A stretch of 64,000 nt of DNA from an uncultured Gammaproteobacteria bacterium (GCA_964407865.1 CAYOXC010000002.1:38978-102977), one strand, 5' to 3'; shown: positions 8,258 to 48,100, counted from the first letter of the stretch. Numbers and translations: made by a program. The notes: generated by a model from the sequence alone, not told the origin.

Positions 8258-9503
8258 AAGCAACTTGTTTTTGTTGGGATGATAGAACTACAATTGCGGC
8301 AATTATCCAAAAAAGCATTGATAAATCGTTTTTAAAATACGGAACATCAACTAGACCGTGGACAATAATCGCGACAAGACAGGCAAAAAGAGCCGCTCGA
8401 ATAAACTTATTTTCAATAAATTTTTTTCGCAATTTTGAAAACAGCGCGGCGAGGATAAAAACAAACGACATCATACCAGCTAAGCCTGTTTCAAGCCAAA
8501 AGTTTAGAAATATATTATGCGGATAAATTAGGCGTTCAAGCGTTTCTTTGTCATAGTTTGGTTTTTGGACTTCTGTAAAAAATCGGCGCAGTCCAGAACC
8601 AAGAATAAAATTACGCGGTGAGTCGGTAAGATATTCTATTGAATATCGCCAAATAGTTAATCGATTTTGTCCTGCTTGATCTTGAAACAATATCGCTGTT
8701 CTTAGTCCGGGCCAGGTAACAGCAAGTACGATTCCCGTAATTATGAGACCAACGGCAATTTTCTTATAATCCAATAAAAAAAGCAGAACGATAATGCCGG
8801 CTGCGAGTGCTACCCAAGATCCTTGAGAAAAAGAAAGCATGACTGCAATAAAACCAATCAGGATGGTTATATAATAGAAAAAGCGATTAATTTTAAATTT
8901 AGACAAGAAGACGGACAAAACCAGAAGCATTGGGACGAGATAAAGACCAATGGCATTCGGTGATGTAAAAAACGAAGTTGGCCGGCCGAACAATTCGTCA
9001 TTCCAGAGCGAAGGGGGGAAAAAAGTGCCAAACAATTTTTGCCAAATAGTGAGAAGAGCAACGCTTAAAGATGAAATGGCCAGAGATGTAATTAAAAATT
9101 TTACCGACAATCTTTTAATGCTTGCTGAGATAACTAAAAAAAACAGAATCGGTTCTAAAAAATAAGCGCGCCATATTCCAAGTGCCTTTAATAAATACGG
9201 ATTGGTCAGCGCAGCGATCAGTGAGGTTGCCAAAAGTAGAGTAGCACCAATAAAAATAATGCGCTGCTTTTTTATTGTTTCTTTTAATTGCGGTAAATCT
9301 GTTGGAAAATAGCGGATAAGCCAAATTATAAAAACAGCCCCAAAAGATATCTCTAGGAGCGTTGTTGGTAGAAAACCAAAATTGGTTCTAATTAAATAAG
9401 TCGGCAAAAAAATTATTAGAAGTGCTATTGCTAGACGAAAATTTATCCAGGTTAAAACGGCAAAGACAAGAAAGAATAGGACAAATACTAATGGCATCAT
9501 CAT
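8256..9503 (-). CDS. O-antigen ligase-like (Wzy_C/WaaL family) polytopic membrane protein
   Basis: About 12 TM segments with a central periplasmic loop; SFSQGSWVALAAG region. Confidence 0.55.
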   Translation of the reverse strand: MMMPLVFVLFFLVFAVLTWINFRLAIALLIIFLPTYLIRTNFGFLPTTLLEISFGAVFIIWLIRYFPTDLPQLKETIKKQRIIFIGATLLLATSLIAALTNPYLLKALGIWRAYFLEPILFFLVISASIKRLSVKFLITSLAISSLSVALLTIWQKLFGTFFPPSLWNDELFGRPTSFFTSPNAIGLYLVPMLLVLSVFLSKFKINRFFYYITILIGFIAVMLSFSQGSWVALAAGIIVLLFLLDYKKIAVGLIITGIVLAVTWPGLRTAILFQDQAGQNRLTIWRYSIEYLTDSPRNFILGSGLRRFFTEVQKPNYDKETLERLIYPHNIFLNFWLETGLAGMMSFVFILAALFSKLRKKFIENKFIRAALFACLVAIIVHGLVDVPYFKNDLSMLFWIIAAIVVLSSQQKQVA

Positions 9504-9507
9504 AATA

Positions 9508-10101
9508 TTATTTTACGTCGATTTTGTTTTTGCGTGTAAATTCACTTTTAAATATGTAGAACAAAAAAGCAGTTCCAATAATTGAAAATATACCTACTAT
9601 ATAAAATAAAAGCTTAAATGAATAGAAGTCAGCCAAGTAAGCGCCTATGGCGGCAGTGGCAGCTGAGGCAAAACTGATTATTGTGTCATATATGCTCCAT
9701 TCATATCCAGATTTTTCTTTTCTTTCGTAGCGGGTATAGATGACCATCCAACCTGGATAGGAAATAGCCGCCCCCAAACCATAGGTAAATTGTAGAATGT
9801 AAACATGAGACAATAGGCTTGAATAGGCCAAACAAAAAGGGACAATACTCATAATAACAGAACCGATAACCAGAGTAATTAACTCTCTTTTGTTGCCTGC
9901 TTCTGCATCCGTCCATTTACTAACAAATATTTGCATGAAGCCTTTTGTTACTAGCTGGATAGCAGCGGCAATGCCAATAGCTGTCAGGCTGGCGCCAGCA
10001 ATGCCTTCTATCATAAAAACGGCAAAAACCGGTTGTACCAAACCAAAACCGCCGATTAAAAAAAGATCTGATATAATTAAAGCCTTTAATACTTTATGCA
10101 T
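9508..10101 (-). CDS. MFS-like 6-TM membrane protein (half-size)
   Basis: Six hydrophobic helices in an MFS-like pattern; only 197 aa. Confidence 0.4.
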   Translation of the reverse strand: MHKVLKALIISDLFLIGGFGLVQPVFAVFMIEGIAGASLTAIGIAAAIQLVTKGFMQIFVSKWTDAEAGNKRELITLVIGSVIMSIVPFCLAYSSLLSHVYILQFTYGLGAAISYPGWMVIYTRYERKEKSGYEWSIYDTIISFASAATAAIGAYLADFYSFKLLFYIVGIFSIIGTAFLFYIFKSEFTRKNKIDVK

Positions 10102-35054: not shown

Positions 35055-35138
35055 ATTTAGTGCAATCTATCAAAAACAATTCAAACCGATAGCTATTGTA
35101 GCATAATTTTGTATTTTTACCAGTCTTGCATACCCTTG

Positions 35139-35172
35139 ACATTTTGGCTAAAATGTGCTATATTTTTATGTC
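35139..35172 (+). promoter_or_regulatory. Sigma70-like promoter (TTGACA-17-TATATT) for the GC-rich orphan
   Basis: CTTGACATTTTGGCTAAAATGTGCTATATTTTTA. Confidence 0.5.
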
Positions 35173-35195
35173 AGTTCTTTAAAAAAGGAGGAAAA

Positions 35196-35555
35196 ATGGC
35201 AGATGTGACGGGACCTGTGAGTACGTTGCCGGGTTCGAGTCGCGCCTTGCGCGAGGGCGCGCAGTGCGATGACTGTGGGAAGAAGCCCGCCACCCACCGC
35301 GTCCAGGGCGAGACCGATTCGTTCGGCGCTGAGTGGGCCGATCTGTGCGACGACTGCTACGTCGTCGAGCGCGAGCGCCGCCGCAAGGACTGCGCCGGCG
35401 AGTGCGACTGGTGCGGCAAGCACTCGGAGTCGCGCATCTGGACGCGTGACTACGACGAGGGTACGCACGGCCCGACCTACCGCGTCTGCAAGTCCTGCTA
35501 CGACAAGCAGCAGAAGGCGCTCGAGGCCGAGCTCCACTACTACTACCGCTACTAG
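35196..35555 (+). CDS. Cys-rich (4x CxxC) small protein, strongly GC-rich; putative zinc-ribbon orphan
   Basis: AGGAGG RBS. Codons dominated by GCC/CGC/GAC. CDDCG, CDDCY, CDWCG and CKSCY motifs. Confidence 0.6.
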   Translation: MADVTGPVSTLPGSSRALREGAQCDDCGKKPATHRVQGETDSFGAEWADLCDDCYVVERERRRKDCAGECDWCGKHSESRIWTRDYDEGTHGPTYRVCKSCYDKQQKALEAELHYYYRY

Positions 35556-35593
35556 CCTCGCAGTGTTGTCTCGCCGTTTTTTCTCACCACCTA

Positions 35594-35637
35594 CCGCACT
35601 AAACCATCGTTCGCGATGGAACCAGTGCGGTTTTTTT
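35594..35637 (+). terminator. Long hairpin terminator
   Basis: CCGCACT ... AGTGCGG stem with an inner CCATCG/CGATGG stem, then T7. Confidence 0.65.
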
Positions 35638-35734
35638 ATCGTTATTTAAATAAACTAACGACTATTTACATAATTACTAGAATGGTATATTCTATGCGGG
35701 CTCTTTAATTGCAACAAAAAACGAGGAGAAAAAA

Positions 35735-35977
35735 ATGAGCAAAAATTGCACCTTGGGAGATTATAGAAGATTTGTTGAAAAAAATCGGGATGCTGTTTTA
35801 AGCTGTGAGGCGGATTGCGTCATGCTTGCCTCTTTTTACAGTGCGCTGGTTGAGGAAAACAGCGCTAAGGATCCGGATGATTTGCCAGACGATCTGATAT
35901 TGGGAGAGAAAACTTCTTATATTTTCAACGCTATACAATCAGGCCATTCTTTTCTAGGTGCAGAGATAGCGCATTAG
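35735..35977 (+). CDS. Small hypothetical protein (80 aa)
   Basis: GAGGAG RBS. Bounded by terminators on both sides. Confidence 0.5.
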   Translation: MSKNCTLGDYRRFVEKNRDAVLSCEADCVMLASFYSALVEENSAKDPDDLPDDLILGEKTSYIFNAIQSGHSFLGAEIAH

Positions 35978-35998
35978 CACCTACGTTCTTTTTTCAGT

Positions 35999-36031
35999 CC
36001 GCACATCTTAATCGATGGTGCGGCTTTTTTA
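35999..36031 (+). terminator. Rho-independent terminator
   Basis: CCGCAC ... GTGCGG stem plus T6. Confidence 0.6.
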
Positions 36032-36128
36032 TTTTCACAGAACTTAATATCAATAGATTAAGTTGCTTGTATGATTACATTTTTGCTGGCCGCATGCGTA
36101 AAATCTTCAGGTTTAATATTTATAACGC

Positions 36129-36587
36129 CTAAATTATAGCAAACTTCGTTTTATTTAGGATGTTTTTTAATATTGCCAATTTATTCAATATATTCGGAAC
36201 TGTATCAATTTTTGGTTCAAAACTGTCTATTTCAGTTAACTTAACCCATTTATACTCAGAGTATTCCTCGTTTAGTACAATTTCACCTTCCATATGAATT
36301 GCGTAATAATGAGGCAAGATCATGGCGTTGCCATCCTTTTTTACGAAGGAAACATTAGTTGTAAAATAAGGAAATACTTTTATTTTGAAGTCACTGCCAA
36401 CTTCTTCGTTTTTTTCTCTTTGCAAACCATTAATTAAACTTTTATCAGTAGTTTCCATTTTTCCGCCGATAAAAGAAAAAGTTCCGTCAAAGTCAGCTTC
36501 GCCTTTTCGTTTACACAACAAGACACTGGATTCGTCTTTTGAATAAACAACAATTTTTTGGCAATATTGAAAATTGTATTTTTGCAT
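36129..36587 (-). CDS. Nudix hydrolase
   Basis: Nudix box GGKMETTDKSLINGLQREKNEEVG. Confidence 0.75.
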   Translation of the reverse strand: MQKYNFQYCQKIVVYSKDESSVLLCKRKGEADFDGTFSFIGGKMETTDKSLINGLQREKNEEVGSDFKIKVFPYFTTNVSFVKKDGNAMILPHYYAIHMEGEIVLNEEYSEYKWVKLTEIDSFEPKIDTVPNILNKLAILKNILNKTKFAII

Positions 36588-36592
36588 ATATT

Positions 36593-37258
36593 TTATTTAG
36601 TAGCTAGGACAACCCAGCGTCCAATTATATCTAATTCCAAATTTACATCCCTGAATTTTGAAAACAATTTTTGAGCCTCTTCTTTTGTAAAAAAACTATG
36701 AGGCAATCCCTTTTCTGGGCCTGATAATGGGGCAAAAGTACCTTCGGCAATTTCTTCATGATCTTTGAAGGTGTTCCATTTCTTACTACTTTTAAAATCA
36801 GGCACAGTAATAAAGATTTTTCCATTTTCACTGATTGCCTCGTAAATTCTATTGATCAAATTTTGAACTTGTTCTTTCGTCCCATGGTGGATTGTAGAAA
36901 TAGAAATGACCAAATCATATTTATTCTTTGGAATGTCAAACTCAAACATGTTTACACAAGTAATAATAGAATCATTACCTAATGTTTTTTTGGTCATTTC
37001 GACTGCGGTTTCGCTTGAATCAATACCGTCAGTTTTAAATCCACCAGCTTGTAGAATTTTCAAGTACTTACCAGTGCCACATCCAATATCTAAAACACGT
37101 TTAATTTCAAAATTTGATTGGCTCAAAAATTGTTTAAATAACGGATGAATTTCTTCCGAAAGGGTTGCCCAAGCGTCACCGCCCTTTTGATAATTTTTAT
37201 AAATATTGTCCCAGATTGTCATAACATTAATGTTTCTATTAGGGTAAAAAGTTTTCAT
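36593..37258 (-). CDS. Class I SAM-dependent methyltransferase
   Basis: VLDIGCGTGKY motif I. A 5-bp gap to the Nudix gene. Confidence 0.75.
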   Translation of the reverse strand: MKTFYPNRNINVMTIWDNIYKNYQKGGDAWATLSEEIHPLFKQFLSQSNFEIKRVLDIGCGTGKYLKILQAGGFKTDGIDSSETAVEMTKKTLGNDSIITCVNMFEFDIPKNKYDLVISISTIHHGTKEQVQNLINRIYEAISENGKIFITVPDFKSSKKWNTFKDHEEIAEGTFAPLSGPEKGLPHSFFTKEEAQKLFSKFRDVNLELDIIGRWVVLATK

Positions 37259-37259
37259 T

Positions 37260-37901
37260 TTACTTTCTTTGTTTCATCTGCCCATCTAATCCACCATAGC
37301 TTATTTCGGGTAATTGTAATTCGCTAAATTGAGGATCAGCTTGTTTTGGAATTGGTCCGGTCACATCTTTCATTTTGGGGCTTCCCGGTTTGACTGGTTC
37401 CTGTCTCAGTACTTGCATATGTATGTCCCCACCTTCAAAACCAAGCGTGACATGAAAATCTTTGGGTGGTAGTCCGGCTTTTTCTCGGAATGCTTGCAGT
37501 GCTGGAATATCGAGAGCGACGAAAGCTGTTTTTTTGACTTTATCAACTTCGCGCATTTGATATTGAGATGAGGTGCCGTCAATAAAACCTATTCCTTTTA
37601 CAACAATACCCTCACCACGCTGAATTTGTTCGTTAATTTGCTGAAGTTCGGCAAGTGTTGCATCATCAAGTGTGTCTAGAATTTTTCTTTCGGTCGGACC
37701 TATTATAGTGAGGTGAAATCCGTCTGGGCGAGGTTCGAGATTTGCGCCTGTAGATTCTCTCACTGATTGTAGTACCGAGTTAAAATCTCCAGTAATTTCC
37801 ACTTCGAGTGTTTGCATATCGGCAAGTCTCTCGTGTGTTAATTCAGGCGATCTTGGTTGTTCTACGGGTGGTTCGTAGCCACCCATTTCTGGATTACTCA
37901 T
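37260..37901 (-). CDS. 2H phosphoesterase superfamily protein (LigT / cyclic phosphodiesterase-like)
   Basis: Two H-x-T-x motifs (HLTI, HVTL) about 95 aa apart. A 1-bp gap to the MTase gene. Confidence 0.55.
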   Translation of the reverse strand: MSNPEMGGYEPPVEQPRSPELTHERLADMQTLEVEITGDFNSVLQSVRESTGANLEPRPDGFHLTIIGPTERKILDTLDDATLAELQQINEQIQRGEGIVVKGIGFIDGTSSQYQMREVDKVKKTAFVALDIPALQAFREKAGLPPKDFHVTLGFEGGDIHMQVLRQEPVKPGSPKMKDVTGPIPKQADPQFSELQLPEISYGGLDGQMKQRK

Positions 37902-38020
37902 AGAATTTTGTTAGTTAAATTTATAATAAATATCTTCCTTATTTTCCCCTATATAAAAGAGAAAATCAAATTATATTTATTTTAGTGAAGCGCGGGCGAT
38001 AGCCCGAAAAGAAAAAGCAT

Positions 38021-38057
38021 ATTTCATATAACGTTTCCTAGTATGCGAAGTTGCGCC
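38021..38057. repeat. Palindromic-element family member A (half-site ATTTCATATAACGTTTCCTAGTATGCGAAGTTGCGCC)
   Basis: Matches the consensus shared with sites B, C, D and F. Preceded by a GGGC-GATA-GCCC hairpin at 37992-38003. Confidence 0.7.
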
Positions 38058-38332
38058 ACTGTTTTCAGCACAATTTTTCGTCTTATTATAGGGTTATTTT
38101 AATACTTCAGACCTTCATTTTCAAGAAGCGCAATTTGGGTGGAGCAAACAACAATTTTCTTTTTGATTTCAATAATCAAGTCCTTTTCTGAAAGCCAATT
38201 GGGCCGTCGTTGGATTGAAAATAGCTTATTCTAGCAGGGATATACACATAACTCTTGACAGGGAGATATTTTTGTGTTATTATCCTGTGTTCGCAAGGAC
38301 TAACAACAAAGCCAAAAGAAAGGGAGGAGAAG

Positions 38333-38743
38333 ATGCAAGCTCACCTAGTGGACGATTTGCTGGTGAGGGCTTTTGGGCGCAACCGAGTGAGCCAGACGAG
38401 AGATGGGCGCTCCGAAGTCCCAAACTGTAACTACCCGCTCTTCTGTGCGAGGATCCAGTTGGAGGATGCTGCCAGCATGGAGGTCAGTTTCGGGTTCCAT
38501 CACCCGGCACTATCGCTGTATTCCGTCCCGTGCTGGAATGTAGGGTGCTACATCCCCGGTGGGAACGGCATCTCTATCGTGATGATGGAGGATGTGAAAG
38601 AGTGCGATGGTATGGACGCGTTACAACGATGGGTAGCCGTAGCTGCGACGTTGAAGACGAGACACATTCGGCAGCTGACAGAATTGTCGCCCTTCGTCGC
38701 GACGTTCGAGCAATTCGTGGGGGTTGTCGAGGGCGCCCACTGA
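38333..38743 (+). CDS. GC-rich hypothetical protein (136 aa)
   Basis: GGGAGGAG RBS. The start is taken at the internal ATG of ORF 38255-38743. GC is well above the genome background. Confidence 0.45.
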   Translation: MQAHLVDDLLVRAFGRNRVSQTRDGRSEVPNCNYPLFCARIQLEDAASMEVSFGFHHPALSLYSVPCWNVGCYIPGGNGISIVMMEDVKECDGMDALQRWVAVAATLKTRHIRQLTELSPFVATFEQFVGVVEGAH

Positions 38744-39011
38744 CCCCAGCTCCTTTACGTTGGAACCGCCGCAACTCATCACCGTCTGTGTGGAGAGAAG
38801 CGGCGGTTCCACACAGATACTTTGTAGAAATTGAGAGGCCCAATTGGCTTTCAGAAAAGGACAATTCAAAATCAAAAAGAAAATTGTTGTTTGCGTAACC
38901 GCACACTCGGTGTTGTACGACAGTTCCGACGGGTAAACAGTTAAAAGTTCGTTTCAAAGACGTGCTTTTTTGTTTGCAAAACCTTTCAATTCTCCTTAAA
39001 TACTAGTCGGA

Positions 39012-39118
39012 ATTTCATATAACGTTAGGGATATACGAAGTTTTTCTGGAATGACAGTGGAAGAAAAATTTGGGTGAGGGGCGAGCCGAGCCCCGAACCG
39101 TATATCCCTTGTTATACG
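39012..39118. repeat. Palindromic-element family member B (complete). M arm is ATTTCATATAACGTTAGGGATATACGAAGTT; M' arm is CGAACCGTATATCCCTTGTTATACG.
   Basis: TATAAC/GTTATA and GGGATATACG/CGTATATCCC inverted pairs with unequal spacers. Internal GGGGC-GAGCCGA-GCCCC hairpin. Confidence 0.8.
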
Positions 39119-39180
39119 CCCCGACGACTGAAAGGAGGAGAGCGCAGCGTGGTCGAGCGAAACTAAGTGGAGCGAAGAAG

Positions 39181-39194
39181 TTGCACCCTAGCCC
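39181..39194. repeat. Left 14-bp perfect inverted repeat (TTGCACCCTAGCCC) bracketing the membrane-protein gene
   Basis: Its reverse complement GGGCTAGGGTGCAA is at 39982-39995. Confidence 0.8.
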
Positions 39195-39937
39195 GAAACT
39201 TCACTTTTTTTTGTGCTATCAAAATTAATAAAAAATATTACTGATACAACTGTAAAGTATGCCAACAAGAAATCTGTAAAACTATCTAAAAGAATTTCAA
39301 AAATTGATATTACAAAATTTTCAGGAAGAAATCCTAGGATAATTCCTTCTACAAACCCAATGCTTAAAGAAGCTATGAGTGTTAAGATTCCAAAAATTAG
39401 AGAATATCCTAAGACTTTCCACCATCTACCCCTAACGATACTTTTAGAATAATCTAATGCATTCTTTCCAGATTTGTCATGGAGTATTACAACATATATC
39501 ACAAATATCCAATATACATAATATATCACTCCGGGAACGATTAGTAATAATGTTAGCCCTAACAAAAATATGCCTAATATTATATTGGTCCCTATTGCGG
39601 CAGGCCATCTGGATAATGATTTTTTAAGAGCTTCTTTAAAATTTATGGTTTTACCATCTATTTTCTGTTTCACTATGTAAGCAATTGCCATAGTTGCAAT
39701 TATTCCGATAAGCCCCTCTAAAATCTGGATTATTTTCATATAGATTCTAAATCCCTGTATTCCACCCATCTGTTCTAGTAATGCATCAAATGGCACAAAA
39801 AACAAAATAATATTAATAGGAATATAGATAGCCAAAGTTACAAGTAATATTAACTGAAACTTTTGTATAAATTTCTTCCACGATTCTGAAAGAATTTGTC
39901 CGATTGAGTATTCTTTTTTATAGATTTCTTGGTTCAT
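39188..39937 (-). CDS. Polytopic membrane protein (DUF975 / glycerophosphodiesterase-membrane-domain-like); paralog of 61360-62121
   Basis: Shares the SGRWWK(I/V)L motif and TM layout with the 61360 ORF. Confidence 0.55.
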   Translation of the reverse strand: MNQEIYKKEYSIGQILSESWKKFIQKFQLILLVTLAIYIPINIILFFVPFDALLEQMGGIQGFRIYMKIIQILEGLIGIIATMAIAYIVKQKIDGKTINFKEALKKSLSRWPAAIGTNIILGIFLLGLTLLLIVPGVIYYVYWIFVIYVVILHDKSGKNALDYSKSIVRGRWWKVLGYSLIFGILTLIASLSIGFVEGIILGFLPENFVISIFEILLDSFTDFLLAYFTVVSVIFFINFDSTKKSEVSG

Positions 39938-39981
39938 ATTTTTTATTAATGTTAATGGTTATATAAAGTTTATCTATTTAA

Positions 39982-39995
39982 GGGCTAGGGTGCAA
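39982..39995. repeat. Right 14-bp perfect inverted repeat (GGGCTAGGGTGCAA)
   Basis: Exact reverse complement of 39181-39194. Confidence 0.8.
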
Positions 39996-40000
39996 TTGCA

Positions 40001-40068
40001 CAACGTTTCGCGATATCCGACTTTTCGTAGAAATGTGGCTTTAGCCTTTAAGGATATCGCGTGTTAGG
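40001..40068. repeat. Palindromic-element family member F (AACGTTTCGCGATATCC ... GGATATCGCGTGTTAGG)
   Basis: AACGTT core and ATATCC/GGATAT inverted arms; flanked by two GGCTTTAGCC copies. Confidence 0.6.
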
Positions 40069-40197
40069 CAAGGCTTTAGCCCTTGAGTTTTCTTTTTAAA
40101 AATTATTTTGCGTCGTCGGATTGACACAAAACCTTTTATATGCTTATATTACAATACGTTCACGACCAAATCAATCATTCAATACAGGAGGTGTGAT

Positions 40198-40437
40198 ATG
40201 ACATTCAATCGTGCGGTACATATGTATGGTGATAAGTTGCAACCGTATGCCATATCAATGTGTGTTCTTTTATTTGGAACAGGCTGGATATGCGGGAAAT
40301 ATTGGGAAATGGGCTTTGGCAATATTTTCCCTCGCGTATTGGCTCTTTTCATCGTTGTTCATTTCATCGACGCAATCGTCAAAAGTGCAATCTTCGCCAA
40401 AGCCCATTTCAGGCTCACATTAACTTGTAAGGACTAG
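40198..40437 (+). CDS. Small membrane protein (80 aa)
   Basis: AGGAGG RBS before the internal ATG of ORF 40108-40437. Two TM helices. A terminator follows. Confidence 0.5.
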   Translation: MTFNRAVHMYGDKLQPYAISMCVLLFGTGWICGKYWEMGFGNIFPRVLALFIVVHFIDAIVKSAIFAKAHFRLTLTCKD

Positions 40438-40464
40438 GGGTTGAAGTTTGCCGGCATTCTCGTG

Positions 40465-40495
40465 GGTCACCGGAAGTATCGGTGACCTTTTTTAT
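40465..40495 (+). terminator. Rho-independent terminator
   Basis: GGTCACCG-GAAGTAT-CGGTGACC stem plus T6. Confidence 0.7.
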
Positions 40496-40528
40496 TTACT
40501 CAAGCAAAAAATAATTTTTTAAAAGAAA

Positions 40529-40601
40529 ATTTCGCCTAACGTTTAGGAATATCAGAAGTTGCGCCTGTGTTTATTGGCTAAAACTTCAAATATCCGCTAT
40601 C
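40529..40601. repeat. Palindromic-element family member C (ATTTCGCCTAACGTTTAGGAATATCAGAAGTTGCGCC ... AACTTCAAATATCCGCTATC)
   Basis: GGAATATCAGAAGTT / AACTTCAAATATCC inverted arms; CCTAACGTT core. Confidence 0.75.
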
Positions 40602-40740
40602 TAAATTATATCACTAAACAATGATTATCGTCAGCGCAATTTGGGAGAAAAAAATTTGCATACCTTGAATATAATTGAGCAAATTTTTTGAACCTGATAT
40701 TCTTTGTTATCTGATGTAAAAATTTTTTAATTCACTTTTA

Positions 40741-41547
40741 TCAAATAGTGTTAGATTTTATTATCTCCAATAACTTAGCATGTAGAGCCGGAGACGTTGC
40801 AAGAAAAGTAAAATTGTCTTGTGGTCGAGAAAGGGCATTTGAATAATCAATAGCATTTCCGAAAAAATCAGTGTAAATTCCACCTGCTTCCTCGATTATT
40901 ATTTGTTGGGCGACATTATCCCATATTTTGCTGGTGCGATTTAAAAAAGCGCCATAATTTCCTCGTGCTACCATCGCAATATCAAAGACGCTATTGCTCG
41001 TTCGCAGGTTTCTGATGTTTAAAACTATTTCGGCCAAAAGCGCGCACTCGTCTCGCGTAAATTTTGGATTTTCCTGGTGACCATCAATTCCGTAGGCTAC
41101 AAGCATTTTTTTCAAATCGCTTTCCTTGGCGACACTGATTTTTTCGGAATTACAATATGCACCTTGCCCTTTCTCGGCCACATAAATTTCGGAAAAGCTG
41201 GGCAAGGCTAGACCGCCCGCAATCGGAATGCCATCTTTTAATAATCCAAGCATCGTTCCATATAGCGGCGTTCCGTTGGCAAAGTTGCTGGTACCATCAA
41301 TCGGATCAATCACCCAAGTGAAATTGGAACCGTTATCAATAACGCCTGCCTCTTCATCGATGATATTATGCTCTGGAAAACTGCCCTTGATTTTCTTAAT
41401 CAACAAAGTTCCAATTTCAATGTCAGTTTCAGTGAGAACCTGATTGTTGTCATCTTCTTTGGTGGTGCCAGCAACTTTGCCAAAACTTTTTCTTGCAACG
41501 TCGGAGGCTTCTTTCAAAGATTGCGTTATAAAATTCTTATATTCCAT
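40741..41547 (-). CDS. Inositol monophosphatase / FBPase family protein
   Basis: WVIDPIDGTSNF signature and downstream metal-binding Asp residues. Confidence 0.8.
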   Translation of the reverse strand: MEYKNFITQSLKEASDVARKSFGKVAGTTKEDDNNQVLTETDIEIGTLLIKKIKGSFPEHNIIDEEAGVIDNGSNFTWVIDPIDGTSNFANGTPLYGTMLGLLKDGIPIAGGLALPSFSEIYVAEKGQGAYCNSEKISVAKESDLKKMLVAYGIDGHQENPKFTRDECALLAEIVLNIRNLRTSNSVFDIAMVARGNYGAFLNRTSKIWDNVAQQIIIEEAGGIYTDFFGNAIDYSNALSRPQDNFTFLATSPALHAKLLEIIKSNTI

Positions 41548-41573
41548 ATTAAAAAGTGAATTAAAAAATTTTT

Positions 41574-41727
41574 ATTTCAGCTAACGAATCCGAATATACG
41601 AAGTTCGGAATTTATTTTAGAGTATAATTTTGCGGAGCAATACTCTAATATAAATTTCGAATTTACGCGAGGTAGCGGAGCGAACGCGGAGCGTTAAGTC
41701 GAGCCGTATATTCGGTGTTATCGGATG
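41574..41727. repeat. Palindromic-element family member D (complete). M arm is ATTTCAGCTAACGAATCCGAATATACGAAGTTCGG; M' arm is CGAGCCGTATATTCGGTGTTATCGGATG.
   Basis: CCGAATATACG/CGTATATTCGG and TAACG.ATCCG/CGGAT.GTTAT inverted pairs; about 150 bp overall. Confidence 0.8.
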
Positions 41728-41731
41728 TAAA

Positions 41732-42106
41732 TTAAATTTTTATGCTTAAATGCTTCCGTATTTTATCATCAAGTGAGAAGTCTTTTATTTTTCCAGGCTT
41801 TTGCAATAGATTTTCAAAACCCATCTTATTATATCGCGGCACTAAATGCCAATGAACTTGTTTTGCTTCGTCCATGTATAACAGATAGACTTTTTTGACC
41901 CCCAACACTTCCAACATTGCATTCCTGATTTCATTCACTCTTTTCATTAAATACTCGTAGTTTTTTTTGGTAAGTAAATGTAAATCAGTTATTTTATCCT
42001 TCCAGACAACAACTGTATGTCCATCTACAATCGGTTCATTGGCTAAACAGGCATAAAGTTTTTCATCCTCATATATAATTGCATTTTTGTATGGCTTTGG
42101 AAGCAT
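41732..42106 (-). CDS. HIT family (histidine triad-like) hydrolase
   Basis: VHWHLVPR HIT-like motif near the C-terminus. Confidence 0.6.
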   Translation of the reverse strand: MLPKPYKNAIIYEDEKLYACLANEPIVDGHTVVVWKDKITDLHLLTKKNYEYLMKRVNEIRNAMLEVLGVKKVYLLYMDEAKQVHWHLVPRYNKMGFENLLQKPGKIKDFSLDDKIRKHLSIKI

Positions 42107-42209
42107 AAAAATTTAATTTATTCCCGATAACTACTGATAAACGAACTTGTTGTTTTTTTGGCTTAAAACCTCTAAAATATAGGGGTTAATTTTAATTCAT
42201 AGAGGGGGT

Positions 42210-43052
42210 ATGAATGAAAGTCATCGCTTTCCCAGCCAGGATCCGATGGTTAAATTGCGACAAGAGATGAAACTACGCAATTTTAGCCAAAAAACCATCA
42301 AGAGTTACCTGTATTATATTGGCGATTGCCTTAAAAAGTCAAATAAACAAGCGCGCATGATCAGCGGTAGCGATGTGCGCAACTATCTTGAGAGTTTGGC
42401 TGATTCCGGCATGTCTTCTTCGACATTAAATATCGCGCATAGCGCCCTTCGATTTTATTTTCAAATTATTTTGCGTCGGAAGTTTTTTTCTGATATTCCG
42501 CGGGCGTGCAAAGAAAAACATTTGCCTGCCGTATTATCCAAAGAAGAAGTGGTAAAAATGGTTTTGTCACTAAAAAATCCAAAGCATAACTGCATTTTAT
42601 CTTTATTGTATGGCACAGGGGTTAGGGTGAGCGAACTAACCCATATTAAAATGCGAGATATTGATTTTGATAGGAGTGTACTGCGCGTATTTCAGGGTAA
42701 GGGCAAGAAAGACCGGTTCACACTTTTGCCGAAATCGCTTAGAGAGGTTTTGTTAAAACAAAGAAATTTAAAAAAACCTGGTGATTATTTATTTACAAAT
42801 GGTCGTGGCGGGCGATTGACAGAGGCGACAATCCAGAAGATTGCGAGGTTAGCCGCAAAGCGAGCTGGTATTCAAAAAAATGTTACACCTCATACATTGC
42901 GGCACAGTTTTGCTACGCATTTGCTTGAAAATGGTACAGATATCAGGTATATTCAAGAATTATTAGGGCATGCCAAACTTCAAACCACGCAGATATATAC
43001 TCATGTGGCAAATAATGATTTAAAACATATTACCAGTCCGTTAGATTTATGA
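42210..43052 (+). CDS. Tyrosine site-specific recombinase (XerC/XerD/phage-integrase family), 280 aa
   Basis: N-terminal SAM-like core-binding domain. Catalytic R (GVRVSEL), K (GKGKKDR), HxxR (HTLRHSF), H (LLGH) and Y (IYTHV). Confidence 0.85.
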   Translation: MNESHRFPSQDPMVKLRQEMKLRNFSQKTIKSYLYYIGDCLKKSNKQARMISGSDVRNYLESLADSGMSSSTLNIAHSALRFYFQIILRRKFFSDIPRACKEKHLPAVLSKEEVVKMVLSLKNPKHNCILSLLYGTGVRVSELTHIKMRDIDFDRSVLRVFQGKGKKDRFTLLPKSLREVLLKQRNLKKPGDYLFTNGRGGRLTEATIQKIARLAAKRAGIQKNVTPHTLRHSFATHLLENGTDIRYIQELLGHAKLQTTQIYTHVANNDLKHITSPLDL

Positions 43053-43513
43053 AAGAAGAATTTGTTTTAGTTTTGCCGGATATAAGAAGCGCTCACAATG
43101 TTGGCGCTATGTTTAGAACTGCCGACGGCGCAGGGGTGGATAAGATATATTTGTGCGGATATACCGCCAGCCCACCTCACACTCAACTGGACAAGGTGTC
43201 TTTAGGAGCTGAAAAATGGCTGCCCTGGGAGTATTGTAAGCAAACTTGGCGGCTCCTCGCCGAACTTAAAGAAAAAGGGTATAATATAGTGGCGCTGGAG
43301 AAGACGGAAAAAAGCCGTGATTTATTCAGCTTTAAGCCAAAATTTCCCTTAGCCTTAGTGGTGGGAAATGAAAAAACCGGGGTGACAAAAAGTTTACTAA
43401 AATATTGCCAAAGCGCTGTTCATATACCGATGAAAGGAAAAAAGAGCAGTTTAAATGTCAGCGTGGCTGCAGGTGTTGCTTTATACCAATTGACGAAAAA
43501 ATCCAAAAAATAA
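43049..43513 (+). CDS. SpoU/TrmH-family RNA 2'-O-methyltransferase (TrmL-like)
   Basis: SPOUT knot motifs (VVGNEKTGV, SLNVSVAAGVALY). Overlaps the recombinase stop by 4 bp. Confidence 0.7.
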   Translation: MKEEFVLVLPDIRSAHNVGAMFRTADGAGVDKIYLCGYTASPPHTQLDKVSLGAEKWLPWEYCKQTWRLLAELKEKGYNIVALEKTEKSRDLFSFKPKFPLALVVGNEKTGVTKSLLKYCQSAVHIPMKGKKSSLNVSVAAGVALYQLTKKSKK

Positions 43514-43521
43514 ATTTACCT

Positions 43522-44247
43522 ATGCCTAAACACACCCTATCTATATTTCGCATTATTATGGCCAATTTACCGCCGCTTTTTCCGCGGGATATTAGCGATA
43601 AAATGAAAAATGCCTTGGAACAATTGGAAAATGATCCGCGAGCAACATTGAAAATGGCCGAAGACATGATGGTAAAATTTGGCTATGATCTCTGGCCATG
43701 GAATGAAGCGTATAAAGAATTTTTAGTTTCTGTTGAAGGGCGTTTGGGCGAACATTTTTTACTTTCACATTTATCTGCTGAACTCGGGGCTAATTATATT
43801 AAATATCAGAAATACGGATTAAGCTGGAAAGATTTATATAGTGGACGGGCGGCACAATATTTTACTCCTGAAGAAAGGCCGGAGTTAACCAAAGCGCTTT
43901 TTAAAACAAAAAATGATCTGCTTAGGTTTAATGACCAAGAAATATTAAGTTTGCATAAGGAGAAATACATCAAACGGGTTGAAGAGTTTAAGGTGATCTT
44001 AGAAAAAATAAAATCAATAATATTAAGTTTAAGGCAAATGGCTGACGAAGAAGAATATCATCCTGTGCTTGCTGATGAAATCAGGGAAAGAGCCAAGTTT
44101 TTTGAAATGGGCCTTTGCCTTTTGGCGCCAAGTTTTTCAGTTGACGAAGCGACGAGAGCTCTGGAATTTTTTGGTGAGCGAAAATACCATTTAAATATGA
44201 TGCGTGGCATTGAAAAGCCGGCTGAAATAGATATATACAACAGTTAA
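43522..44247 (+). CDS. Hypothetical protein (242 aa)
   Basis: Internal ATG of ORF 43405-44247, immediately after the TrmH stop. Confidence 0.45.
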   Translation: MPKHTLSIFRIIMANLPPLFPRDISDKMKNALEQLENDPRATLKMAEDMMVKFGYDLWPWNEAYKEFLVSVEGRLGEHFLLSHLSAELGANYIKYQKYGLSWKDLYSGRAAQYFTPEERPELTKALFKTKNDLLRFNDQEILSLHKEKYIKRVEEFKVILEKIKSIILSLRQMADEEEYHPVLADEIRERAKFFEMGLCLLAPSFSVDEATRALEFFGERKYHLNMMRGIEKPAEIDIYNS

Positions 44248-44253
44248 CTTCTT

Positions 44254-44775
44254 ATGCCAAAAAAGATTTTATTAATTATCGCACACGAAGATTTTCAACC
44301 GGTTGAATACTATTCTACCAAGGCTGTTTTGGAACAATCGGGGATGGAAGTGCTAACAGCGAGTGACGGAGCAGGCGAAGCTAAAGCGGCGCATAATGGA
44401 ATGCCAGCTAAAATTGATGTAAATTTATCCGAGGCAAAAGCCAGTGATTGCGATGGTTTGTTTATCGTCGGTGGTTCAGGGGCTTTGGAGCATTTGGACA
44501 ATGAAGTAGTTTATAATTTAATGCGACAGGCTGAGTCTGTCGGCAAGCTCTGGGGTGCGATTTGTATTGCTCCTAGAATTTTAGTTCAAGCCGGACTCTT
44601 AAAAGATAAAAAAGCGACCGGCTGGGACGGCGATGATGAGCTTGGTGGTATTTTAAAAAATGCCGGCGCTGAATATGTTAAAGAAGAAGTCGTGGTTGAT
44701 GGTAATTTAATTACCGCCACAGGCCCAAAAGCAGCGGAAGCTTGGGGTCAAGCGATAGCTAACTTGTCTAAATAA
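44254..44775 (+). CDS. DJ-1/PfpI family protein
   Basis: Nucleophile elbow GAICIAP with the conserved Cys. Confidence 0.75.
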   Translation: MPKKILLIIAHEDFQPVEYYSTKAVLEQSGMEVLTASDGAGEAKAAHNGMPAKIDVNLSEAKASDCDGLFIVGGSGALEHLDNEVVYNLMRQAESVGKLWGAICIAPRILVQAGLLKDKKATGWDGDDELGGILKNAGAEYVKEEVVVDGNLITATGPKAAEAWGQAIANLSK

Positions 44776-44776
44776 T

Positions 44777-45034
44777 ATGAATAAGGTATTCTGGGTACTG
44801 GCAGTAGGTTTTTTTCTTATCGGTGGTTATACGATTTTAACCGTATATTCAAAAATTGCCGGTACGCCCAAGGCGATAGTATTTAACTGCCCAGAACATT
44901 CGCTAGAAGATAAGTGTATTATTCAGGATTCATTCAATCGTTTTTTAGACAGAATATTGCCGGACAAAAACGTTCAATTAATCGAGAAGTTTTCGCCTAC
45001 ACCAATGACAGACGAAGACGATTTGTCTGGGTAA
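44777..45034 (+). CDS. Small membrane protein (85 aa)
   Basis: Single N-terminal TM helix. Confidence 0.4.
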   Translation: MNKVFWVLAVGFFLIGGYTILTVYSKIAGTPKAIVFNCPEHSLEDKCIIQDSFNRFLDRILPDKNVQLIEKFSPTPMTDEDDLSG

Positions 45035-45173
45035 CAGAGGTTTGGTTAAAGTTTTGTCCACAGCGTTGAAAATTGGCTAAAACAAGGGGGAAATAAGCCT
45101 TGTTTTTTGTTTGCTTAAAAGGATAAAAAATTGGTATAATGATTTTTCAAAATACTATATTTGCTATGAATTT

Positions 45174-48100
45174 ATGTTAACCACTGCCGCAACTCCAATT
45201 CACGAAACAAACAACGACTTTCGTTATAATTCTGAAAAAGGATTAAAATTTAGCCGCTTTTTTTCGCGTGACGATGTTTCTCCGTTTGATCAATTTGAAT
45301 ATGAATATCGCAGTTCAATCATACGCGAACCATCGGGAAAAATTATTTTTGAAATGAAAGAAGTTGAGGTGCCAAAGACTTGGTCTCAGGTAGCGACAGA
45401 TATTCTGGCTCAAAAATATTTTCGTAAAGCAGGTACGCCTCAATTTAATTCTGATGGAACGCCAAAAATTGGCGTTGATGGCAAGCAAATTACCGGTGCT
45501 GAATCCAGTATAAAGCAGGTAGCCCATCGCTTGGCTGGAACTTGGAGGTGGTGGGGTGAAAAATATGGTTATTTTGCATCAGCAGAAGATGCGCAGATAT
45601 TTTATGACGAATTGATTTACATGCTTATTGGCCAGGTTGTCGCTCCAAATTCTCCGCAGTGGTTTAATACTGGGTTATGGTGGGCCTACGGCATTAACGG
45701 TCCGGCGCAGGGTCATTATTATGTTGATCCTGACTCTGAAGAAATAAAAAGGTCTGAAGATGCTTATACCAGGCCTCAGCCTCACGCTTGTTTTATTCAA
45801 TCCATAAAAGACGACCTGGTAAATGAAGGCGGTATAATGGATTTATGGGTAAGAGAAGCGCGACTTTTTAAATATGGCAGCGGTACGGGAACAAATTTTT
45901 CTAATCTTAGAGGCAGGGGGGAGAAATTGGCTGGCGGAGGAACTTCGTCGGGACTGATGAGTTGGCTTAAAATAGGAGATAGATCAGCCGGGGCGATAAA
46001 ATCTGGAGGTACCACCAGACGAGCAGCTAAAATGGTAATTTTAAATGTTGATCACCCGGATGTTGAAGAGTTTATTGACTGGAAAGTGACAGAAGAAAAA
46101 AAGGTTGCGGCATTGGTTGCTGCTGGTTATGACACAGCCTACGAAGGCGAGGCTTACCAGACGGTTTCCGGGCAAAATTCAAATAATACAGTTAGAGTGA
46201 CACAGGATTTCATGAAGGCGATCGAAGATGATACTAACTGGAATCTTGTTGCCCGGACCAACCAAGAGACAATAAAGACTTTAAAAGCTAGAGAGCTTTG
46301 GGATAAGATCGTGAAGGCTGCCTGGAGTTGCGCTGACCCAGGATTGCAATTTGACACAACCATAAATGATTGGAACACATGCCCTAGGTCAGGGCGAATC
46401 AATGCTTCAAATCCGTGTAGCGAGTACATGTTTTTGGATGATACGGCATGCAATTTGGCTTCAATTAATTTAGGCCATTTTTATGATTTAGAAAATAGAA
46501 ATTTTGACATTAATGGCTTTAGGTACACGGCTAGAATTTGGACTGTGATATTGGAGCTTAGTGTACTGATGGCACAATTTCCAAGCAAGGAAATTGCTGA
46601 AAATAGTTATAAATTTCGTACTTTAGGTTTGGGTTATGCAAATATCGGATCTGTAATTATGACTGCTGGGATGGCTTATGATTCGGCTGAGGCGCGCGGT
46701 TTTGCAGCAACCATTACTTCTATCATGACAGCTGAGGCTTATGCCACGTCAGCAGAGATGTCGGCGCTTCTCGGGCCTTTTTCTGAATACCAGTTAAATA
46801 TTGAGGAGATGCTTCGCGTAATCAGAAATCATCGCCGGGCTGCTTATAACGCTAGCCCTGAGGAATATGAGCGCCTTTCAGTAGCACCAGAAGGAATAGA
46901 TCCTAAATATGCGCCAGATTACCTTGTGGCTGCGGCTCGGGAGTCTTGGGATAAAGCGCTTATTTGGGGTGAGAGGTTTGGCTATCACAACGCTCAGGTA
47001 ACTGTATTGGCACCAACCGGAACAATCGGACTTTTAATGGACTGCGCCACTACAGGCGTTGAGCCAGATTTTTCTTTAGTAAAATTTAAAAAATTGGCTG
47101 GCGGAGGATATTTTAAAATTGTAAACGAAGCCGTGCCTACTGCTTTGCGCGCTTTAGGTTATAACGATGAACAGATTACGGATATTGAAAATTATATGAC
47201 TGGTTACGGCACCCTTAAGGGCGCTCCAGGAATAAATCATGAATCATTAATGGAAAAAGGTTTTACTAGTGATGATTTGGTAAAAGTTGAACAGGCTTTG
47301 TCCGGCGCATTTGAAATTAGTTATGTCTTTAATGTTTATACGCTGGGCGAAGATTGTTTGAAGCGTCTCGGTTTTACTTTGGAACAAGTGAATGATTCGA
47401 GTTTTAATTTGTTGAAAGCCTTGGGTTTTACCAATGAGCAAATTGGAGCAGCCAATGATTTTGTTCTTGGTGCGATGACTATTGAAGGAGCGCCGCATTT
47501 GAAACAAAGTGATTATCCGGTTTTTGATACAGCCAACAGAAACGGAAAGAAAGGCCAAAGATATATTGAGTATCTTGGCCATATTCGCATGATGGCTGCG
47601 GTTCAGCCGTTTTTGTCTGGTGCAATTTCCAAAACGATAAACATGCCAAATGAATCTACCGAGGAGGATGTTAAGACTGCCTATCTCACATCTTGGAAGT
47701 TAGGGTTAAAAGCAAATGCTATATACAGGGACGGCTGTAAAATGTCTCAGCCGTTATCCAGTAAAACAAAAGAAGACAAAAAAGAAGAAGAGGCAGAAAC
47801 ACCGTCTTCCGAGAAAAAAACTGGACCAAGCGTTGCGTCTTCTTCGGGTGAACAAGGAGAGCTTATTCCAAATATATTTACGATTTCCAGCGAGAGTGAA
47901 TCTGTTTTAAATCAAATTGTTGATGAGGCCAGAGTTCAGATAAATTATGCGCACGACGGAACCGCGGCCGGCACGAGAATATACATTCACGGCGAGCAGC
48001 GCCAGCTTCCATATAAAAGAAGCGGCTTAACAGTCAAGGTTAAGGTAATGGGTCAGACAGTATTTCTGCGGACCGGCGAATATCCCGATGGGAAACTTGG

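Follow-up and report, generated by a model that had tools for sequence, protein, structure and literature searches.

In this study, we analysed a 64,000-nucleotide (nt) stretch of DNA from an uncultured Gammaproteobacteria bacterium (GCA_964407865.1 CAYOXC010000002.1:38978-102977), referred to here as the window, in which a run of gene units separated by hairpin elements ends beside a divergently transcribed tyrosine recombinase gene. Five elements, named A, B, F, C and D in order of position, lie at 38021-41729 on the + strand at the boundaries of gene units, and a related site at 42120-42148, unnoticed in the first reading of this DNA, stands 81 nt before the start of the recombinase gene (42210-43052, + strand). 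The geometry described in an earlier note was found to be correct: the recombinase is divergent from the array, its gene lies 103 nt from the start of the nearest array gene, which encodes a HIT-family protein, and it overlaps a SpoU/TrmH-like gene by 4 nt. The window has a GC content of about 39% and is read here as part of a Patescibacteria genome, similar to Candidatus Magasanikbacteria, the label borne by the closest named homologues of the recombinase. Window positions 35956-46414 are 100% identical to three independent Logan contigs (runs SRR14492171-3), so the arrangement did not arise from faulty assembly of a single record. We propose that the locus is an integron-like gene-cassette platform run by an Xer-type recombinase, a reading to which we assign a probability of about 0.68.

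The recombinase, the only one of the tyrosine type in the window, has 280 residues and is XerA/IntI-like, with the Pfam Phage_integrase domain and a SAM-like N-terminal domain. Its catalytic residues (R, K, H-x-x-R, H and Y) do not vary among 33 homologues. With 250.8 bits against the NCBIfam model XerA_Arch (cutoff 220) it belongs to the Xer family, and against the integron integrase model (IntI, TIGR02249) it scored 237 bits, below the cutoff of 265, and was matched in two pieces. The best solved structures were VchIntIA (2a3v, E 2e-49) and XerA (7e-46), ahead of XerD (3e-30).

Each hairpin element is built from two arms. The left arm has the form ATTTCnnnnAAC, 3-5 nt, an 11-nt box and A(A/T)GTT, and starts at 38021 (A), 39012 (B), 39997 (F), 40529 (C) and 41574 (D). 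The right arm consists of GAACC overlapping the partner 11-nt box, followed by T and GTTAnnTGATGTA, and starts at 38896 (A), 39095 (B), 40045 (F), 40690 (C) and 41701 (D). Consensus pattern searches of the window returned three left-arm matches, with 0.04 expected by chance, and three right-arm matches, with 0.02 expected, all within 38.0-41.7 kb. Profiles of the arms recovered 10 arms at 38020-41730, every one on the + strand, and none in the remaining 60 kb of the window. Both searches uphold, for 38.0-41.7 kb, the earlier description of one family of co-oriented imperfect palindromes at unit boundaries, and the profiles also agree with its statement that the 64 kb hold no further copies. 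One proposed site, E (36111-36147), had to be dropped: it was missed by the arm profiles even at E<=10, it has no right arm and it overlaps the stop codon of the Nudix gene. A generic scan for AAC...stem...GTT palindromes was too noisy to be of use (61 matches against 24-53 in shuffled sequences), and the arm profiles were used instead.

The site at 42120-42148 (+ strand) reads ATTCCCGATAA|C-TACTGATAAACGAACTT, with a putative crossover at 42130|42131. It resembles a left arm along its length (about 30 nt), has neither a right arm nor a hairpin, and its pattern has one exact match in the window. Since it takes the place that attI has in integrons, we refer to it as the attI-like site. For comparison, loci of relatives with recombinases 63-77% identical were fetched and metagenomes were scanned for the site itself (these loci carry L numbers below); the search pattern demanded TTGGCT 11 nt after the site, and recovery was biased accordingly. 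In 13 distinct relatives the spacing from the site to the recombinase match was 80-96 nt, mostly 81. The recombinase-side half, TACYKATAWRCVAAC, is conserved among relatives. The distal half keeps the frame ATTTCnnnnAA, in which nnnn and the positions beyond vary, and derives from the adjacent cassette. TTGGCT was considered as a -35 box of the recombinase gene and rejected: its spacing to TAAAAT is just 9-10 nt or so, and it is also kept where no recombinase follows, though the pattern required it. The repeated GGCTAAAA...GCTAAAAT after the attI-like site may serve for accessory binding and not as a promoter.

Element D (41574-41729; arms 41574-41605 and 41701-41729), the attC-like site of the first cassette, folds as DNA with a z-score of -4.3, and its + strand is better by 3.8 kcal/mol. 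Element C (40529-40718) had been placed at 40529-40601; its left arm (40529-40560) was confirmed there, and the right arm was found at 40690-40718, not at 40580-40601. Element F (39997-40075) belongs to a divergent subtype with the inner stem CGCGATATCC/GGATATCGCG and 21 nt between the arms, and this subtype recurs with compensatory changes in L090 and L099. Element B (39012-39118; arms 39012-39042 and 39095-39118) is 85% identical over 67 nt to an element of L093. Element A (38021-38920) had been seen as a lone arm at 38021-38057. That left arm (38021-38052) is real, and it has a partner at 38896-38920, 843 nt away, the terminal hairpin being expanded to 751 nt. In this hairpin (38144-38894), inverted repeats at 38144-38205 and 38837-38894, with two perfect 26-nt blocks per side, enclose a GC-rich open reading frame (ORF, 38333-38743); thus, element loops can carry cargo. 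All five elements lie on the + strand. In the loops of A, B and C (38133-38145, 39073-39084 and 40639-40650) and of elements in L087, L103, L097 and L107, A(A/T)GTT pairs with the AWTTT of a motif, AWTTGGGYGRAG. This pairing always includes a + strand G:T pair, and a second GC-rich hairpin and then GAACC follow, giving a three-way junction.

Folded as DNA, the elements have z-scores of -2.9 to -4.5 and form good hairpins with an AAC/GTT outer stem and an 11-bp inner stem. The extrahelical bases foreseen in the earlier note turned out to be an asymmetric internal loop between the two stems, constant across the family, in which 3-5 nt of the 5' strand face a single nt of the 3' strand; the inner stem itself is free of bulges. 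Covariation was assessed in 17 arm pairs from 10 genomes, aligned on sequence motifs and not on pairing. Arm-pair cells were paired in 92.2% of cases, compared with 74.9+-1.7% in shuffles, and 48 cells carried changes on both sides, compared with 17.9+-3.4, a value reached in 0 of 500 shuffles. When the partner was slid by 1-3 columns as a control, pairing fell to 24-50%. Compensatory changes affect 7 of the 11 pairs of the inner stem, where as many as five pair types occur; examples are GGGATATACG/CGTATATCCC, GGCATATCCG/CGGATATGCC, GCGTGTATGCG/CGCATACACGC and the stem of element F. The inner boxes thus behave unlike the target of a protein that reads duplex sequence, which would conserve the box. 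Calculated with DNA parameters, folding favours the + strand (recombinase-sense, 5'-AA|C) over its complement in every one of 14 elements, the difference being 0.5-3.9 kcal/mol. Of the traits of an attC site, the R''/R'-L''/L'-type architecture, AAC/GTT boxes, covariation and strand asymmetry are seen; the inner stem has no extrahelical bases, and recognition as a folded single strand is putative.

These results bear on an alternative without folding, in which the arms serve individually as ordinary duplex sites and double-stranded Xer recombination moves or inverts the units as 'dif-modules', a scheme proposed for the pdif modules of Acinetobacter. It would account for the resemblance of the left arms to a full core site, homologous to the attI-like site over about 30 nt, and for genes flanked by inverted arms, as in the pdif modules of plasmids. 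It does not sit well with inner boxes that vary between elements yet stay complementary within each, with the single nt between the boxes of the right arm against 3-5 in the left, or with the uniform preference for the + strand. In seven elements (F, L090F, L099, L107a, B, L093b and L092a) the arms are 21-55 nt apart, too short for synapsis of duplex sites or for inversion. We therefore regard this alternative as improbable.

Comparison between genomes links the element family to the attI-like site. In an all-against-all BLAST, homology between genomes starts at -16 to 0 of the attI-like site and runs through the recombinase gene; upstream of the site there is none except short matches between elements. 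Each genome with enough upstream sequence has its own gene set, mostly pointing away from the recombinase, with the same element family interspersed. L090, for instance, has five elements and ORFs of 97, 150 and 160 residues, and further such arrays are found in L092, L093, L099, L107, L108 and L109. Arm matches, duplicates included, number 41 in 99 kb upstream of the attI-like site and 1 in 140 kb downstream, and lie on one strand only. A negative control of 1.08 Mb, made up of Xer/IntI loci of other phyla (proteins 33-48% identical to the recombinase among the matches listed), yielded one marginal match. The earlier note had reasoned that a motif spread evenly around the genome would indicate repetitive extragenic palindromes (REP) or miniature inverted-repeat transposable elements (MITE), and that units syntenic and invariant across related genomes would speak against cassettes. 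Neither was seen: the arms cluster as described, without the dispersal in both orientations of REP, MITE or bacterial interspersed mosaic elements (BIME); the upstream genes differ in each genome; one cassette end is joined to different partners; and the contexts of an inositol monophosphatase (IMPase) gene differ.

The joined cassette end also maps the crossover. In L094, L098 and L108, a 150-nt non-coding end (...GGAATATTTCAGCTAA; ...GGGCGATAGCCCAAAAAAGAAAAGGAATATTTCAGCTAA) is followed by the attI-like half (CTAC...; CTACTTATATACC). In L092, the same end runs into TGTATCGGTATATGCG... / TGTATCGGTATATGCGATGTT, which is the inner half of an ordinary element located 3.5 kb into the array. This is the product expected if new cassettes enter at the attI-like site and push the old first cassette inward. 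L087 contains two copies of a shared 55-nt end, one preceding an element and the other the attI-like half. In these junctions nnnn travels with the distal side and the base after AA (C or T) with the proximal side, and the exchange is therefore placed within TAA|C. On the other strand this is G|TT, the crossover position of integrons. As in integrons, an attI-like site adjoins the recombinase gene and receives insertions at G|TT, and cassettes differ between arrays and recur in other contexts.

The shared end is a leader of about 150 nt, 93-95% identical between L094 (-150..0), L098 (-126..0), L108 (9790-9925) and L092 (-3656..-3505), signed positions being relative to the attI-like site. It begins with AAATCGTTTTCGnAGCGnAGCGnAGAAAACACC and precedes unrelated first-cassette genes (a caspase-helicase, a 222-residue protein and a HisI-like protein); it may be a portable promoter or 5' leader. 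On the array side of L108, a contig of 812 kb, genes for a caspase-helicase fusion, Fic, HD and hydrolase proteins lie at 2433-9772 and are defence- or toxin-like, as in large chromosomal integrons. Downstream of the recombinase of L087 (3716-8308), a ribonucleotide reductase gene is split by an intein with a LAGLIDADG endonuclease.

Contigs of relatives often end 80-630 nt upstream of the recombinase gene; one starts exactly at AAC and two inside right arms, a pattern expected when short reads from a repeated or variable array are assembled. The ends of Logan contigs lie near elements but not exactly at TAA|C and were not counted as evidence of recombination. Among the matches listed, Xer/IntI-like genes from DPANN archaea, Saccharibacteria and other Patescibacteria (L007-L086; 44-48% identical) are in many cases no more than about 250 nt from a contig end. 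Similar variable regions may adjoin those genes, though the element family of the array is absent there.

Hairpins of this kind could also be structured RNAs, terminators, REP/MITE-type repeats or invertible promoter switches that lie near a recombinase by chance. Indeed, the elements are intergenic, covariation and G:T pairs (G:U in RNA) would equally fit an RNA, and the loops hold a conserved motif and extra hairpins. Nevertheless, we consider such an origin very improbable. A search of Rfam at gathering and permissive thresholds returned only tRNAs and a chance mir-83 hairpin. Instead of being dispersed, the elements are all co-oriented relative to one conserved site, and the exchange of flanks at TAA|C between genomes is a signature of DNA recombination. 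The strand that folds better is antisense to most cassette genes, and the loops of 21-55 nt are too short to invert, invertible segments measuring hundreds of bp.

If the crossover positions are taken as boundaries, the array of the window consists of five cassettes. Cassette 1 (41585-42130) holds the HIT-family gene (41732-42106, - strand; Pfam HIT), whose start codon is 23 nt from the crossover. Cassette 2 (40540-41584) carries a gene of the IMPase family (40741-41547, - strand; Pfam Inositol_P). Cassette 3 (40004-40539) is reversed, with a gene for a 79-residue membrane protein on the + strand (40198-40437) and a consensus promoter of its own (40121-40150). A 249-residue membrane protein (DUF7847) is encoded by cassette 4 (39023-40003; gene 39188-39937, - strand). 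Cassette 5 (38032-39022) contains the ORF in the loop of element A (136 residues), which has its own promoter (38255-38283) and for which no homologue beyond itself was found in 5.8 billion proteins. By Pfam, the cassette units of the window encode nothing related to replication, transfer or phages. To the left of element A, a Nudix, methyltransferase and 2H-phosphoesterase operon (36129-37901, - strand; assigned by Pfam) has no supported element on its far side, because E was not detected; it is uncertain whether this operon is chromosomal flank or a decayed last cassette.

The IMPase gene illustrates the recurrence of a cassette gene elsewhere. Its homologues are 84-96% identical, exceeding the best non-self match of the recombinase (77%). 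In L112, from another metagenome, the gene has 91% DNA identity over 971 nt, and the right arm and the outer frame of the left arm are the same as in the window. The recombinase-side element differs (box CAGTATATCTG against CCGAATATACG in the window), and 4 of the 11 positions in the gene's own right-arm box are changed. In L111 the gene lies in a degenerate array-like setting, and in L110 among other genes, with no arm match at E<0.5.

Further left, outside the array and not flanked by elements, a Cys-rich ORF of 119 residues and very high GC content (35196-35555, + strand) is equipped with its own consensus promoter (35136-35164), terminator hairpins and a ribosome-binding site. Its matches are phrog_15864 (E 3e-29) and, at 46-50% identity, hypothetical proteins from jumbo phages of Klebsiella, Serratia and Ralstonia.

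In class 1 integrons, the cassette promoter Pc lies within the integrase gene. At the same place, inside the recombinase gene and directed toward the array, we found a Pc-like antisense promoter candidate (42313-42342, - strand), TTGACT-18-TATAAT, which matches the consensus at 11 of 12 positions. Its hexamers are kept in the DNA of 9 of 12 relatives despite amino-acid changes; the three relatives without it include L094 and L108, both of which have the shared 150-nt leader. Potentially, this candidate promoter drives the array.

Taken together, we propose the following mechanism. The attI-like site, fixed 81 nt before the recombinase gene, would act as a duplex and receive successive cassettes by site-specific recombination. 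Each cassette would combine a single gene or a small number of genes, for the most part pointing away from the recombinase, with one attC-like element. In the folded recombinase-sense strand, the AAC/GTT outer stem and the 11-bp inner stem would rebuild a duplex that imitates the attI-like site, much as the attC bottom strands of integrons and the folded attP of CTX phage do, and this single-stranded form would presumably be the substrate. Strand exchange would take place at the TAA of ATTTCnnnnAA|C, and cassettes may be excised as circles. The catalyst would be the Xer-family recombinase, of XerA or 'Cand' type and without the IntI-specific domain. The earlier note had read the locus as having the geometry of an integron or of another recombinase-serviced cassette system, and this is now supported by independent comparative evidence, namely the junctions, the homology boundary and the differing arrays. 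Since the defining protein feature of integrons fails, we speak of an integron-like platform and not of a member of the integron family.

Several observations weigh against such a platform. First, residues 188-202 of the recombinase (14 residues) stand opposite residues 184-241 of VchIntIA (IntI4; 57 residues), so that the IntI-specific domain, which holds the I2 helix, is missing; this absence and the profile scores agree with the earlier judgement that the enzyme is not a canonical IntI. The domain is held to be required for recombination of single-stranded attC sites (PMC7790495, PMC9668308), and its absence here is thus a point against the mechanism proposed above. Second, the loops carry the conserved motif and extra hairpins, unlike canonical attC sites, and some units between detected elements hold 3-4 genes. 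Third, G:T mismatches outnumber A:C mismatches 13 to 7, which alone is indecisive for the folding strand; the asymmetry in energy is clearer. Fourth, in L092, L096, L098, L099 and L102 the attI-like site and TTGGCT are followed by unrelated genes (dus-like, ClpB and others) and not by a recombinase; arrays are thus separable from the recombinase gene. L097, a metagenome contig of 3523 nt, has a near-identical attI-like site at 526-560 within an array; elements lie to either side of it and no recombinase gene follows. A deletion, a second site and a chimeric contig are conceivable explanations. Finally, no excision product, circle or within-population polymorphism was observed; the three Logan relatives are identical to the window.

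The recombinase clade is, moreover, very widespread and conserved, with thousands of homologues more than 60% identical, and Smyshlyaev et al. (2021) placed Xer-related enzymes of candidate phyla in a 'Cand' subgroup presumed to substitute for Xer (PMC8138268). The main job of the recombinase may therefore be chromosome dimer resolution. This leads to a further explanation, in which the enzyme is a housekeeping resolvase, the attI-like site is the chromosomal dif (compare difSL beside xerS) and the units are small elements that pile up there in the manner of integrative mobile elements exploiting Xer (IMEX). The XerA_Arch score above the cutoff speaks for it, as do the near-universal presence of the clade in these phyla, the core-gene setting of the recombinase gene, coupled to a SpoU methylase, and the genomes in which the site has no recombinase gene beside it. 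In addition, CTX phage demonstrates that Xer enzymes can use folded hairpin sites without an IntI domain (PMC7790495). Against it, cumulative GC skew rises on both sides of 42.1 kb in the 64-kb window, with a local dip over the reversed array genes and no switch of polarity. The locus is thus not at a replication terminus within the window, which argues against a classical dif and is still compatible with a dual role. Nor does this explanation predict units devoid of replication, transfer and phage functions, or ordered, co-oriented arrays of integron geometry. The earlier note had named a sole chromosomal Xer acting at a dif elsewhere as an outcome that would speak against its reading; beside this we set the observation that the conserved site next to the recombinase is exactly where cassettes join. 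We consider the housekeeping explanation unlikely, and in part it overlaps with a cassette platform rather than excluding one.

Among known systems, integrons are the closest parallel to the proposed platform. Shared features are the recombinase divergent from the array with a promoter-like site inside its gene; the fixed site with a conserved proximal and a cassette-derived distal half and a crossover at AA|C = G|TT; and one imperfect palindrome per cassette, with AAC...GTT outer boxes, a covarying inner stem and a variable centre. Several boxes read GTTAGGC / ACTTAAC, fitting GTTRRRY / RYYYAAC. In integrons, the recombined bottom strand is the intI-sense strand and carries 5'-AAC; the better-folding strand is likewise recombinase-sense here. 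In both, genes mostly point away from the recombinase, reversed cassettes have promoters of their own and arrays vary between genomes. Unlike integrons, the system has a recombinase that scores as XerA and has no I2 helix, a clean 11-bp inner stem whose asymmetry lies in the spacer, a left arm homologous to the attI-like site over about 30 nt and not just 7, and loops with a conserved motif and two sub-hairpins, one loop even holding a whole ORF. Some units are multi-gene, and the site is sometimes not beside the recombinase gene.

CTX-phage-type IMEX at dif resemble the system in their use of an Xer-family enzyme without the IntI domain, in tandem accumulation at one chromosomal site and in two inverted site copies tens of nt apart; by analogy with CTX, where the single strand folds to imitate the duplex target, the elements might work in the same way. 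Unlike these phages, the cassettes are small and non-autonomous, the target is not at a skew switch in the window, and the stems covary freely, suggesting recognition of structure rather than close mimicry of dif. In the pdif modules of Acinetobacter, gene modules are likewise bounded by inverted Xer-type sites and an Xer-family enzyme is implied. However, pdif are conserved 28-bp duplex sites on plasmids, in contrast to the covarying arms that pair at short range and to the co-oriented array on the chromosome with its single anchoring site. In taxon and domain composition, the recombinase fits the 'Cand' simple tyrosine recombinases, for which a housekeeping Xer role is presumed and no cassette array or site was described (PMC8138268). 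A full-text literature search for integrons or cassette arrays in Patescibacteria, or the candidate phyla radiation (CPR), found no description, although its coverage was incomplete and a prior description is possible.

In the prevailing view of integron evolution, recombination of single-stranded cassettes began once an Xer-like ancestor had acquired the I2 helix, with no known intermediates (PMC7790495). It is tempting to ask whether the locus is a working integron that never acquired I2, either a surviving relative of an intermediate between Xer/IMEX systems and integrons or an independent invention, and maybe widespread in candidate phyla; we put this forward tentatively, as somewhat less than an even chance. 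Definitions of integrons, the programs that find them and surveys demand the IntI-specific domain (PMC9668308, PMC9024848), and such surveys would thus miss this system. If the proposed platform is real, it would be a natural test of the need for I2 in recombination of hairpin sites, and it might yield a compact, structure-specific recombination tool. It would also explain the recurrent assembly breaks beside these genes in metagenome bins. Thousands of genes annotated as 'XerC/D' in candidate-phyla genomes would then be read differently, and ultra-small, reduced genomes would have a route of gene gain.

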